From NCBI RefSeq assembly GCF_011045215.1, contig NZ_CP049201.1: a stretch of 64,000 nt of DNA; one strand, 5' to 3'. The stretch's first letter is position 1; every line of letters starts with the position of its first letter. Positions 10,804 through 15,975 of the stretch are shown here, piece after piece. The DNA is from Escherichia coli (GTDB lineage: Bacteria > Pseudomonadota > Gammaproteobacteria > Enterobacterales > Enterobacteriaceae). The translations under genes were made by a program, and so were the position numbers. Under the pieces are notes generated by a model. The model was not told the DNA's origin, did no database searches, and was given only the letters and a program-made list of their open reading frames with translations.

Positions 10804-11114
10804 ATTTTTATCCTTGAATTGTGAAATATTCTTCTAAATTTAAAATAATCAGGGGGTGGGGAAAGATAAGCTTTGCACAGAAACTTATCTTTTAACATTA
10901 CAACACCCGGTAATCATTTTATTTCTCTAAGCATGATTATGGGTTTAAGTATAATGCAATATATATTGTATTTTAGACGCGCAATAGGAAGGTGCTATCA
11001 AAAATCGCTCATTTTGTGGATGGGAAATATTTCACGGCAGGCGAGATATTTACTACAACTTCCTTCATGCAGGATTATGCGCAGCCAATTATCCGGTTGG
11101 TATATTTAAAGATC

Positions 11115-11377
11115 CTATTGCCTGGTTGACGCTTCTGCATCGTAATGCACCACGCACTGCCAGTCGCTGCCCTGCTGGCAATATATCGCTTCGGTTTGCC
11201 CAGGGATCACCCATTGTATTTCCTCGCCGGGGGGACAGGTCAGCCAAATGCATAACCCGCAGCCGCCGCGTAAATCACGGGGAATATCGCTGACGCGAAA
11301 AGTCATGCCCGCTGCCTGCAACGCCTTGCGGGTTTGTATGACGCCGACCGTGGAGTGAAATAAAAATAAAAACTCTT

Positions 11378-11381
<4 letters not shown>
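11115..11381 (-). CDS. Small Cys-containing hypothetical protein, possibly translationally coupled to yjiL
   Basis: 88-aa ORF whose start overlaps the yjiL stop by 4 bp (ATGA arrangement); contains a GGCGLC motif; function unknown. Confidence 0.5.
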
Positions 11382-12148
<767 letters not shown>

Positions 12149-12154
12149 TACTCC

Positions 12155-13306
12155 TTACAGCATCTCAATAAAGGCCGCGACACGGGTACTGAGCTGCCCA
12201 ACATCCGAGGTGGAGTAGTCTGTTTCAATAGCGATATAAGGAATGTTGTGCTGCTGACGCACATGACGTTTAATCGCCAGCGATTCCACCGCGTAGGTAT
12301 GGCACGCCTGCAAAATCACATCAACTACGCCATCGACCTGATATTCTTCCACCATCTGGCTGAGCATTTTCAGGCGCTGATCGTTCGGCGAAACACAGGA
12401 GCAGCCAATCGCCAGATATTTATCCGCCAGCGCGTCGTAGACATCGCCCGTTTCTGCCACGCATTGCTCGGTCGCTTTCGCCCCGGTGCAGTTTTCATAA
12501 CCGACAACCCAGCCGCCATTCTCTTCAATCGCGCGCACCACTTTCTCTGCTGCGCCGCCAATCGGGCAGCCGGTGATTAAAATGCGCGGACGCGGGTCCA
12601 GTCGCTGGCCTTCTTCCCACTGCTGACGAATGCGGGCGGTCATCGCGTCCAGTTCATTGATCAACGCCTCTTTATCGAACCGGAAGGTTGCGCCGTAAAC
12701 CACTTTCAGAATGTCGCTGCCGCTAAGCGCCGGAGGATTTAACTGCCCAAGATGATAAAAATTGGCCAGTGCGCGACGTTCGCGGTTTTTCAGCGCAATG
12801 GCATCGCGCAGAGCATCTTCGCTAATCTCGTGCCCAAAACGTTTTTCTACCGTTTTTTGCAAGCGCAGCATCTCGGCTTTCCATAATGCACGCGAGGCAC
12901 CGTCCTTAACGCTGTTCGGCAACTGCATCACATGAACGGGCTTAAATTCCGCCATGTATTCATACATTTTCTTTTTGCCGTCGCAGGTGGTTTCACCGAC
13001 CACCAGATCCGAAAAGTAGAAGTAGGGGCATTTATCGGTTTTGCCAAAGCCGTAGCTGCTTTTAATCAGCGGGCAGAGGTTGCGCGGCAGATCTTTCTCC
13101 GCTTCTTCAATGGTTTCATCAGAGGTGGAACAGAGCGAAACCACAACCGCACCGGCTGCCATCGGGATCTCTTGCGGCATAAAGGTGCAGTAAGTGCCAA
13201 CCAGCGGAATGCCGCGCTCCTTGAGATCCATGACGGTGAGAAAGCCTTTCTGGCGAGCTTCAGAGAACTGATCGAAAATGGCGGGTAGATCGGTGACAAG
13301 TGACAT
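12155..13306 (-). CDS. yjiM: 2-hydroxyglutaryl-CoA dehydratase D-component-like protein
   Basis: ORF 12155..13327; start trimmed to the internal Met (MSLVTDLPAIF) to give the 383-aa length I recall for K-12 YjiM. Confidence 0.75.
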   Translation of the reverse strand: MSLVTDLPAIFDQFSEARQKGFLTVMDLKERGIPLVGTYCTFMPQEIPMAAGAVVVSLCSTSDETIEEAEKDLPRNLCPLIKSSYGFGKTDKCPYFYFSDLVVGETTCDGKKKMYEYMAEFKPVHVMQLPNSVKDGASRALWKAEMLRLQKTVEKRFGHEISEDALRDAIALKNRERRALANFYHLGQLNPPALSGSDILKVVYGATFRFDKEALINELDAMTARIRQQWEEGQRLDPRPRILITGCPIGGAAEKVVRAIEENGGWVVGYENCTGAKATEQCVAETGDVYDALADKYLAIGCSCVSPNDQRLKMLSQMVEEYQVDGVVDVILQACHTYAVESLAIKRHVRQQHNIPYIAIETDYSTSDVGQLSTRVAAFIEML

Positions 13307-13421
13307 GATTTTCCTTCCCCGTACCACGGGAGATAATGAAAAGAGGCCACATTATTACCATTCTTTTAGTATGGTTTATTTGATCTCTCTCGCGGTTAGC
13401 CACTTAGTTTTTCATGGATTT

Positions 13422-14702
13422 CTAAAAATTGCCGAGGGGGAACAAGGCCGGGAGCTGCGACAGCAAATATAAAATTAGCCCAATACAACCGCCAACCAGC
13501 GTACCGTTGACACGAATAAACTGCAGATCTTTGCCGATATTTAACTCTATTTGCCGCGACATATCCCGGGCATCCCAGCTTTTTACCGTATCGCTGATGT
13601 GGCGCGTCAGGAATGCGGAAAACTCAGGCGCGACGCGGTGCGCGGCTTGTTCCAGGTGACCATTTAACGACGCCCGCAAGGCATCATCGGCAATTAACGT
13701 TTCGCCAAACCATTGACCCGCCCGCGCGATACGTTCTTTCACACGAGAATCTTCACTGTTGATATCCGCTTTCAGCCATTCCCGTAAATCCCCCCACAAT
13801 TCACTGAGATAGCGGTTAAAGGCTTCATCCTCTTTCAGATAGCTTTTTACGGCATCAGCTCGCGCTGCCATTTCAGGATCGTTTTTCAACTTGTCGATCA
13901 GGGCAAAAGTGGCGCGATCAAACGCATGGCGGATCTGATGTGCACGATCGCGGCTGATATCGTCAAGCAAAGAATTCACCGCGTCAGAAACCAATTCCGC
14001 GCTATGTTCGCCCAGCCATTCGGTGGGGAGAATTTTGGCTTTCAGTGGATGCTCACTCTCCAGCCAGCGAACAATCTGCTGGGCGATAAACTTGCGCGAT
14101 TTATCGCGCTGGAGAAGGGCGATCAACTGTGCGATCAGCGTATCCAGCAGCACCTGATGACGATCGTTTTTGGTCATACTCTCCAGCATCAACGCACTGG
14201 TGCCGGAAAGATCGACCTTATCAATCGCCCGATGGACTGCGCGCTTAAGCAGGCGCTGAATACGCGCATCATCGGTCAGTTCAAGAAAACCACTCATGAT
14301 CTGCAACAGATGCTGACCAACGCGGCGGGCGTTTTCTGGCTGGCTAAACCAGTTGCCAATCAGCAACGCCGGTTCGTGGCGTCGAATCAATGCCACCAGC
14401 GACTGGGTATCGAGAAATTTTTCCTGCACGAACTGACCGAGATTTTCGCCAATCCGGTCTTTATTACGCGGGATAATCGCCGTATGACGAGAAATGATCG
14501 GAATCGGCACGCGGCGAAACAGCGCCACCACCGCAAACCAGTCCGCCAGCGCGCCGACCATCGCCGCTTCAGCAATCGCCTTCACGCCGCTCACCCAAAA
14601 ATTGGGCGGCAAAAACAGCGTAACGACAAAGGTAGCAGCGGCGATAAGCAGTAAAGAGAGCGCCAACATTTTGGCGCGTCTGAGTTCAATGAGTTTATTC
14701 AT
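13422..14702 (-). CDS. yjiN: DUF445-family inner membrane protein
   Basis: ORF 13422..14834; start trimmed to [19 protein letters not shown]... giving 426 aa; N-terminal TM helices. Confidence 0.75.
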
Positions 14703-14742
14703 AACGTTAAGAATAGAGCCTGACGGCAGGATCGCGCAAAAA

Positions 14743-15975
14743 TCACCGCTCCTCCGCCAGCTCGGCAGCCTGATGTTGGCGCACGCGATTAAGCAATCCG
14801 GCCAGGGTGAAAACGACGATAACGCCTGCCACAACGGCTAACAGATGAAACGGCAAGCGACCGCCGTTAAACCACAGCCAGCGGCCAATTTCGACCGAGA
14901 CAGACATCACCATCAGGATCACCATATTCAGCGATGCGGAGACGGTCCCTTTCGGTAAGTTATTGGAAAAAAGCGTAAAGCGGAATAAGGTCGGGAAGAT
15001 CAAACCAATCCCGAAAGCAAACAAACTGGTGCCCAGCACCGACCACAGCCAGACGTGCGGTGACAGCAGGTTGCCGATAATCAACAGCGCGAGGCCAACC
15101 AGTTGAATGGGTACGGCACGCCAGATAAAGCGCGGTTCGGTCGGATCTTTAACGAAACGCGCCACGATGGCATTCGCGACAATCACCGCGCCGAACACCG
15201 GAACCTGTGTCCAGGCGAACTGCGAGGTCGTTAAGCCGCCTGCGTCAATCAGGATCACCGGCGAGACAGCCACCCAACTCATCATGGGGATATAGCTTAA
15301 AGAGATGGTTGCTGCGCCAAAGAGGAACAGCCGATTGCAAAAGACATTACGAAAATCGCGCAAGACGCTTTTGGCGCTAAATGGAACCGCGCCGCGCTTC
15401 ACCGTCTCTGGCATCGCCAGCAGTAAGCCAACAAATGAGATAAAACCCATAACCGCAATGATGGCAAAAAGGACTTTCCAGTGCACAAAGTGCATCAGAG
15501 CTGCGCCGGAAAGCGGGCCAATAATCGGCGCAATCAGTACGATGGAGGTGATAATCGCCATCAACTTGATCCCTTTTGTCTGTCCGAACGCCTCCTGCAC
15601 CGTGACATAACCAACGGTAGCAATAAAACAGATACTGGTGCCCTGAATTGCACGCGCGATAAGAAACTGTGTCATAGACGTTGTGAACATTGTCGCGGCG
15701 CAGGCAAGGGTAAATATTAGCGCCCCGGTAATCAGCACCGGCCTGCGGCCAATCCTGTCGGAAAGCGGCCCCAGCAGCCACTGTAACGCCATACCGCCCG
15801 CGAGATAGAGACTGACGGCTGCCGGGGCCAGACTGACATCGGCATTAAAATCACGGACCACATTAATGATCCCCGGCTGGATCAGGTCCGTCGACAGATA
15901 GGCGGCAAAGTCATACAAAATCAACGCCATCGGGAAAAACAGCGTAGCGGCATGGCGGGCAAAAAAACGTGGCAT
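14743..15975 (-). CDS. mdtM: Multidrug efflux MFS transporter
   Basis: ORF 14743..15984; start trimmed to [23 protein letters not shown]... (410 aa), matching my memory of MdtM. Confidence 0.85.

Follow-up and report, generated by a model that had tools for sequence, protein, structure and literature searches.

Conserved linkage of ytiA to yjiL and yjiM

The stretch of DNA analyzed here (the window) comprises 64,000 nucleotides of one strand of an Escherichia coli genome (RefSeq assembly GCF_011045215.1, contig NZ_CP049201.1). Its complementary strand carries yjiM, yjiL and, at the 3' end of yjiL, an open reading frame (ORF) of 88 codons, ytiA, whose product is the subject of this work. A preliminary description of the window had noted this ORF, its 4-bp overlap with the yjiL stop codon and a GGCGLC motif in the translation, and had proposed either a small redox or carrier partner of YjiL and YjiM or a chance ORF, naming conservation, codon substitution and profile searches as checks. 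The overlap and the motif were both borne out by the sequence. On the minus strand, yjiL ends with the letters CGC CGA TGA and ytiA begins with ATG AAA GAG, the two genes overlapping by 4 nt. The features of the region are collected in Table 1.

Table 1. Features of the ytiA region of the window
Feature	Position	Strand	Description
ytiA coding sequence	11115..11381	minus	ATG-started ORF, 88 aa + stop; DUF3343 / Se_S_carrier; identical to WP_000657677.1
ATGA stop/start overlap	11378..11381	minus	ytiA ATG (11379-11381) shares bases with yjiL TGA (11378-11380)
Shine-Dalgarno-like GAGGA	11389..11393	minus	7 nt 5' of the ytiA ATG, within the yjiL 3' coding end
GGCGLC motif, residues 39-44	11250..11267	minus	Cys41 codon 11259-11261; Cys44 codon 11250-11252
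Rapidly evolving last third of YtiA (residue ~62 onward)	11115..11200	minus	from comparison with K-12 and dN/dS
Last ~9 ytiA codons	11115-11140	minus	no homology to the K-12-type allele
yjiL	11378..12145	minus	ATP-dependent activase/reductase component; BcrAD_BadFG; TIGR00241 (acyl-CoA dehydratase activase), 362 bits (cutoff 125)
yjiM	12155..13306	minus	double-cubane-cluster-containing anaerobic reductase, 383 aa from the annotated ATG
Pentapeptide-repeat gene, espX6-like	8596-10803	minus	PF00805, 735 aa; between yjiK and ytiA
yjiK	7487-8329	minus	SdiA-regulated domain; 79% DNA identity to K-12-type yjiK

Orthologs were collected by scanning one genome per species of the Enterobacteriaceae and Hafnia. 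This yielded 51 loci, belonging to Escherichia, Citrobacter, Klebsiella, Raoultella, Kluyvera, Kosakonia, Phytobacter, Atlantibacter, Cedecea, Yokenella, Trabulsiella, Superficieibacter, Intestinirhabdus, Enterobacter and Hafnia. Gene yjiL was located directly upstream of ytiA in all 51 loci, and yjiM upstream of yjiL in every locus but one (L014), whose contig stops inside yjiL. The stop and start codons overlapped in 49 loci (4 nt in 39, 1 nt in the other 10), and a Shine-Dalgarno-like 4-mer was present between positions -18 and -4 of the ytiA start in 39 of the 51. Gene ytiA is the third and last gene of a yjiM-yjiL-ytiA operon, and the arrangement of its start predicts translational coupling to yjiL through the overlapping codons, with GAGGA as the putative Shine-Dalgarno-like element. 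In one locus, from Citrobacter koseri NCTC10786 (L019, positions 3327-4246), yjiL is apparently disrupted, with an alignment that starts at residue 31 and an early in-frame stop, and the ytiA gene downstream is intact.

YtiA as a member of the PF11823 family

PF11823 (Se_S_carrier, formerly DUF3343), titled 'Putative Se/S carrier protein-like' in Pfam (Se/S standing for selenium/sulfur), was the sole Pfam match of YtiA at E <= 0.01. The score was 49.2 bits (gathering cutoff 25; E = 3.6e-13), and residues 4-59 of YtiA aligned with positions 2-57 of the 69-position profile; no NCBIfam model covers the protein. DUF3343 members are typically 80-100 aa long and have one highly conserved cysteine (PMC5322559), a profile shared by YtiA, which is a stand-alone protein of 88 aa whose Cys41 aligns with the invariant cysteine of the family. 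The profile search suggested at the outset thus led to a putative Se/S carrier family. The window protein is identical over all 88 residues to RefSeq WP_000657677.1, 'putative Se/S carrier protein', and its ortholog in strain K-12 MG1655 is ytiA (b4715, YP_009518833.1), an 85-aa 'uncharacterized protein YtiA'. Megablast of positions 10700-12300 against complete E. coli genomes matched the region in 5385 of 5426, in which the gene is annotated as 'ytiA: DUF3343 domain-containing protein' or 'putative Se/S carrier protein'. In all, 133 YtiA homologs were found, with 56-98% identity in named Enterobacteriaceae. ytiA is therefore an already known and named gene of PF11823, and its detection adds nothing to the annotation. 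The literature matches listed for 'ytiA' referred to the unrelated Bacillus subtilis ytiA, which encodes a paralog of ribosomal protein L31, and those for 'b4715' were unrelated as well.

Intact ytiA ORFs of 78-89 aa were present in 50 of the 51 loci, the remaining one running off its contig. The ratio of non-synonymous to synonymous substitution rates (dN/dS), given as the median of pairwise Nei-Gojobori (NG86) values, was 0.23 for the whole gene, 0.16 for codons 1-48 and 0.38 from codon 49 to the end, next to 0.09 for yjiL and 0.05 for yjiM. When the nucleotide alignment of ytiA was read off frame as a control, four of the five frames gave dN/dS values of 1.26-1.91, and the fifth, an antisense frame with common third positions, gave 0.35, as expected. 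Variability was 0.41 at third codon positions versus 0.20 at first and 0.16 at second positions. ytiA is a genuine gene under purifying selection, and both the conservation and the codon-substitution analyses named in the preliminary description came out in favor of its reading frame.

The alternative raised there, that a non-coding stretch 3' of yjiL happens to be open in one frame, could appeal to the frequency of 40-90 aa ORFs in all frames of this region. The length of ytiA alone is in fact unconvincing, since the ORF list of the window contains other-frame ORFs of 54 and 55 aa that cover the same DNA. Moreover, a promoter and terminator scan found nothing exceeding the shuffled expectation and no signal specific to ytiA. 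However, a chance ORF is excluded because of the Pfam match at twice the gathering score, the frame kept intact in 50 species-level loci and the contrast between in-frame and off-frame dN/dS. The concentration of variability at third codon positions and the presence of the gene in both RefSeq and the K-12 reference annotation argue in the same direction, leaving this option a negligible probability.

When 82 members of the family, with identities as low as about 20%, were aligned, Pro34 and Cys41 were the only invariant positions, with Phe8 nearly so and Gly42 kept in 80. By contrast, Cys44, the second cysteine of the GGCGLC motif, was found in only 56 members. Nine of the 67 non-enterobacterial members are single-cysteine proteins which, together with the status of Cys41 as sole invariant cysteine, fits a single-thiol carrier. 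The motif had been part of the basis of the carrier reading in the preliminary description; of its two cysteines, Cys41 is invariant in the family and Cys44 is not conserved family-wide. Within the Enterobacteriaceae, residues 1-45 of YtiA are almost invariant and the C-terminal third is variable, and the subfamily has extra cysteines at C44, C49 and often C76. A truncated 56-aa variant (P0040), 98% identical to YtiA, was encoded on 31 contigs of up to 392 kb and recurs in long Escherichia contigs; it consists of the 56 conserved residues of the N terminus, among them Cys41, and is devoid of the variable tail.

A confident AlphaFold2 model of YtiA, computed from the 82-member alignment (predicted local distance difference test score, pLDDT, 88.4; predicted template modeling score, pTM, 0.78), showed a beta-alpha-beta-beta-alpha-beta-beta topology and placed Cys41 where the beta2-beta3 loop ends, so that YtiA is predicted to be a small protein with a ferredoxin-like fold. 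A Foldseek search with this model returned only generic ferredoxin-like or PII matches, the best being PII/GlnK signaling proteins with a template modeling (TM) score of ~0.5 and E ~1e-2. A PDB sequence search gave only noise (best E = 0.044), and no family member with a solved structure was found. The likeness to PII/GlnK is a structural resemblance only, consisting of a ferredoxin-like core and a functional loop that connects strands 2 and 3. It nevertheless raises the alternative that YtiA is a PII-like regulatory or redox-sensing subunit which carries no atom, the thiol state of its loop cysteine gating the YjiL ATPase or YjiM. Cys41 occupies the position of the PII T-loop, and the enterobacterial CGLC sequence is a CxxC that could form a disulfide switch. 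However, the second cysteine is missing in 26 of the 82 members and in most of those adjacent to double-cubane reductase genes (CG[IL]S), therefore a dithiol switch cannot be the common mechanism of the family. In addition, no Pfam P-II match was obtained, and the genes found beside DUF3343 members are transport or mobilization genes (YedE, YedF, desulfurase) rather than sensors. Taken together, a regulatory role appears improbable.

Other assignments were considered and rejected. PII/GlnB membership was discarded on the lack of a P-II match and the TM score of the structural match, and a thioredoxin-like CxxC oxidoreductase on the absence of Cys44 from part of the family and a predicted fold that is not thioredoxin-like. 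Proteins of the TusA/SirA family (PF01206, which includes the N-terminal domain of YedF) resemble YtiA in being small and having a single cysteine thought to carry persulfide, and they often occur in the same loci as DUF3343, both lying beside YedE-type transporters and cysteine desulfurases. Unlike TusA, YtiA is predicted to have its cysteine in the beta2-beta3 loop and shows neither a PF01206 match nor a CPxP motif, the GGCGLC sequence not being followed by proline. Its predicted fold is not the two-layer alpha/beta fold of TusA, which was absent among the structural matches listed. By analogy, YtiA may work like TusA while standing outside the TusA family.

The allele in the window departs from that of K-12 at its 3' end. 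Like K-12 YtiA, it is encoded 3' of yjiL with a stop/start overlap and has identical residues 1-61; differences occur only afterwards, the shorter K-12 form having another C-terminal third. In a blastn comparison with a K-12-type locus, homology stopped at window position 11141 and resumed only in yjiK, at 79% DNA identity. Unlike the K-12 locus, the window has, between yjiK and ytiA, a gene for a 735-aa pentapeptide-repeat protein that bears successive QANDST(D/E)K-like repeats at its C terminus. Homologs of this gene are annotated in some E. coli as espX6, a pentapeptide-repeat effector of the type III secretion system. The arrangement of yjiK, pentapeptide gene and ytiA was found in at least 635 of the 5426 complete genomes (match to >=80% of the query), and in the closest genome the pentapeptide gene is frameshifted. 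The interval from yjiK to the 3' end of ytiA looks like a replaced segment that arrived with the pentapeptide gene. The tail of YtiA tolerates replacement, consistent with its relaxed C-terminal dN/dS.

DUF3343, double-cubane reductases and selenium genes

The neighbors of ytiA encode the two components of a double-cubane reductase system. YjiM, which the preliminary description had called dehydratase-like, is instead a double-cubane-cluster-containing anaerobic reductase, scoring 530.7 bits on NCBIfam NF040772 (cutoff 350). Its best PDB match was the double-cubane protein of Carboxydothermus hydrogenoformans (6ENO/7YYL; E = 5e-74). Seven cysteines of YjiM (C40, C59, C78, C108, C273, C304 and C335) were 100% conserved in 48 orthologs. 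The published seven-cysteine regular expression had no literal match in YjiM because the spacings in the protein are 1-2 residues shorter than in that motif. YjiM and YjiL are homologous to the two components of the characterized C. hydrogenoformans system, DCCP and DCCP-R, which, unlike the ytiA operon, has no third small subunit. YjiM is devoid of the channel-closing N-terminal helices of the C. hydrogenoformans enzyme, and a larger substrate has been suggested for it (PMC7317905). Regarding the start of yjiM, a mechanically derived ORF begins at a GTG at 13327 (390 aa) and the RefSeq annotation at the ATG at 13306, and the shorter form is the one that agrees with orthologs and with the alignment to NF040772. 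Gene yjiM has been listed as FNR-regulated, and its expression rises together with that of anaerobic genes. A search for FNR boxes upstream of yjiM found no site with at most two mismatches in the interval between yjiM and yjiN; one FNR-like site with two mismatches lies at 13507-13520, and the total for the window was near chance (47 versus 35 expected). An Rfam scan of positions 7000-15000 matched no RNA family.

Homologs of YtiA from more distant bacteria, whose loci were found by exact-sequence lookup, also lay beside double-cubane genes. Proteins P0255 and P0260, 35-36% identical to YtiA, are encoded in reductase-activase-DUF3343 triads whose reductases scored 524-536 bits on NF040772, and the gene of P0266 overlaps by 4 nt a fragment encoding the C-terminal part of a YjiL homolog. 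Four apparent activase-DUF3343 fusions (P0245, P0262, P0264 and P0346) were partial proteins starting within the activase. They probably result from read-through gene calling over an overlapping stop/start junction and are not natural fusions, and they were given no weight as Rosetta-stone evidence. A protein search with YjiM was saturated by enterobacterial orthologs and gave no distant loci. The converse scan was made blind to DUF3343. Its query, run against metagenome contigs, was an alignment in which the Carboxydothermus enzyme stood at the head of four double-cubane reductases, and it returned 80 loci with reductases 40-73% identical to that enzyme. An activase was present in the flanks of 54 of these loci and a DUF3343 ORF within 4 kb in 20. 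Fifteen of the 20 DUF3343 ORFs were on the same strand as the reductase or activase and at most 120 nt away, in several gene orders, and all 20 kept Cys41. Four sampled DUF3343 ORFs were confirmed with Pfam (64-86 bits), and eight sampled reductases with NF040772 (487-532 bits). As a rough estimate, based on one to a few DUF3343 genes per genome, the chance of finding one within 4 kb is well under 1%.

These DUF3343 ORFs were not confined to reductases of the YjiM type ('class II', open-channel), a restriction that was considered and rejected: they adjoin reductases 53-57% identical to the Carboxydothermus enzyme (L083, L085, L089, L097 and L103) as well as YjiM-like ones (L137 and L145). DUF3343 is a frequent but facultative third component of double-cubane systems, and none of the DUF3343 literature found describes it as a component of double-cubane operons. 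Two additional features were observed in the metagenomic loci. Tandem reductase paralogs with a single activase occurred in L077, L079, L081, L087, L088, L095, L109, L111, L113 and others, which suggests heteromeric or multi-substrate systems. A variant form of DUF3343 was found in longer stop-to-stop frames of 185-203 aa (L074, 1330-1926; L077, 1780-2373; L079, 1853-2407; L115, 6755-7363); a PPPEI(R/Q)(S/T)GCDL motif replaces CG in this form, Pfam matches nothing in the remainder of the ORF, and its gene lies near YedE and 1.2-1.6 kb from the activase or reductase of a double-cubane cluster.

The operon linkage of DUF3343 and double-cubane genes could also reflect a role in cofactor maturation, in which YtiA would supply sulfide (or selenide) through Cys41 for the [8Fe-9S] cluster of YjiM, for instance its bridging atom, and handle no substrate. 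In favor of this, DUF3343 genes adjoin genes of the cysteine-desulfurase family, as Fe-S assembly carriers do, and a preprint raises a possible Se-bridged 2x[4Fe-4S] form of the cluster (10.1101/2022.07.06.499078). However, the [8Fe-9S] cluster is present in the structure of the C. hydrogenoformans reductase, the loci most similar to which have no adjacent DUF3343, and 75% of the double-cubane loci had none within 4 kb. Furthermore, many DUF3343 genes sit with YedE and YedF where no double-cubane gene is found, which points to general trafficking and not to dedicated assembly. A maturation role is thus rated as distinctly unlikely.

Selenium genes were conspicuous in the surroundings of DUF3343. 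Other distant members adjoin genes for YedE (TIGR04112), YedF (TIGR03527), TusA and proteins of the TIGR01977 cysteine-desulfurase family, the latter scoring just under the model of the selenocysteine lyase SclA. The neighbors matched TIGR04112, 'putative selenium transporter', and TIGR03527, 'selenium metabolism protein', above cutoff in both cases. Among 81 other ORFs in 19 non-redundant DUF3343-positive double-cubane loci, the commonest neighbors were YedE (6), YedF (5) and TIGR01977 (4). YedE, YedF or selenocysteine-lyase-like genes were present in 12 of 20 DUF3343-positive versus 5 of 60 DUF3343-negative loci (Fisher p = 7e-6; the loci compared include one near-duplicate pair). One further member, P0342, is encoded on a metagenome contig of 30% GC (L067, 915-7833) with YqeB, YqeC, XdhC, MoaC, MOSC and MoCF genes, markers of the maturation of selenium-dependent molybdenum hydroxylases. 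P0342 is followed there by a decayed activase remnant, a fragment of 111 aa, and by the frameshifted C-terminal half of a double-cubane reductase; this set is a decayed triad in a selenium-cofactor locus.

Published surveys provide related indications. The Se/S carrier role of DUF3343 is a comparative-genomics prediction from gene neighborhood, in which a function as chaperone in Se/S trafficking was put forward for the protein (Lin et al. 2015; PMC5322559), and the STRING table for Slackia in the same paper includes, uncommented, an activase and a 2-hydroxyglutaryl-CoA dehydratase subunit among the partners of DUF3343. Kayrouz et al. placed duf3343 among the top five genes overlapping with selD (bioRxiv 10.1101/2022.04.13.486033), and Haft found 955 of 970 NF040772 proteins in SelD-encoding genomes and noted no known selenium connection (bioRxiv 10.1101/2022.07.06.499078). 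In the literature found, the near-restriction of double-cubane proteins to SelD genomes and the co-localization of DUF3343 with selD, yedF and selenocysteine-lyase-like genes had not been joined.

The same neighborhoods can be read as those of a sulfur-only relay, YtiA being a persulfide carrier for, e.g., polysulfide, thiosulfate-derived or organosulfur substrates of the reductase. TusA, transporters of the Sulf_transp family and cysteine desulfurases are sulfur-handling families by fold, and DUF3343 is also found in organisms lacking SelD and contains no Se-specific subfamily (PMC5322559), because of which sulfur stays a possible cargo. Against an exclusive role in sulfur transfer, the models matched by the neighbors are the selenium-associated equivalogs of YedE and YedF, one DUF3343 gene belongs to the YqeB/YqeC locus, duf3343 ranks high among selD-overlapping genes and NF040772 proteins are almost confined to SelD genomes. 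A relay restricted to sulfur is accordingly considered unlikely.

A proposed role for YtiA in anaerobic selenium mobilization

Compared to other PF11823 proteins, YtiA shares the size and the single highly conserved cysteine of a family that clusters with YedF, YedE and selenocysteine-lyase-like genes, and differs in that the enterobacterial subfamily is tied to the double-cubane operon and not to yedEF or selD. The interpretation that we favor, at somewhat better than even probability, is that YtiA would be a Cys41-based Se/S carrier working with the YjiL/YjiM reductase in the anaerobic mobilization of selenium (or sulfur). The carrier-partner option of the preliminary description is thereby supported at the level of sequence analysis, by the PF11823 match, the RefSeq name, the overlap with yjiL in 49 of 51 loci and the recurrent adjacency of DUF3343 and double-cubane genes. 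The physical partnership of YtiA with YjiL/YjiM, the atom carried and the direction of its transfer are what we infer. YtiA would be made in step with YjiL through translational coupling, and Cys41, in its exposed loop, would transiently hold a chalcogen atom, with selenium favored and sulfur possible. The atom could be held as a perselenide or persulfide; for the enterobacterial form with CGLC, a selenotrisulfide (Cys41-Se-Cys44) would be an alternative. Towards the YjiL/YjiM double-cubane reductase, which is ATP-driven and of very low potential, YtiA would then serve to present the substrate or to accept the product. The three proteins might then take part in anaerobic mobilization of selenium, or less likely sulfur, and feed selenide to SelD-dependent pathways.

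Several observations weigh against this interpretation. YtiA evolves far faster than its neighbors, showing 38% identity where YjiM shows 82% and YjiL 65%, and no paper on the function of E. coli ytiA was found in the literature search. The occurrence of DUF3343 in SelD-lacking organisms also counts here, and so does the position of the enterobacterial yjiM-yjiL-ytiA operon, which is not beside yedEF or selD, therefore the selenium link in the Enterobacteriaceae is indirect. In addition, the C. hydrogenoformans system is reported to be two-component, small molecules being reduced by reductase and ATPase alone (PMC7317905). No DUF3343 gene was found within 4 kb in 60 of the 80 double-cubane loci, nor in the five closest to the Carboxydothermus enzyme (L069-L072 and L131; 71-73% identity), in which the downstream flank is present. 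Because of these loci, DUF3343 is not universally required.

A more specific version of the carrier proposal was also formulated, according to which the physiological substrate still missing for some double-cubane reductases would be the DUF3343 carriers themselves, a selenium species held by Cys41 (perselenide, selenotrisulfide or Se(0)) being reduced to selenide for SelD. Though speculative and doubtful at present, it would account for the finding of these reductases almost exclusively in SelD genomes, and also for the proposal that the substrate of YjiM is larger than a small molecule. If true, YjiLM-YtiA would constitute an anaerobic, ATP-dependent selenium-mobilizing reductase.

With ytiA and PF11823 already known, the operon-level link is the useful lead. 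The value of the finding lies in this context, which bears on the substrate of double-cubane reductases and on the reduction and trafficking of selenium in bacteria upstream of SelD. DUF3343 recurs in double-cubane/activase operons: all 51 loci of the enterobacterial set have it, as do 25% of the 80 unrelated loci from metagenomes. In E. coli, a genetically tractable host, the system occurs in its minimal form of three genes, which makes the hypothesis directly testable there. DUF3343 proteins may be a link between double-cubane reductases and selenium metabolism.

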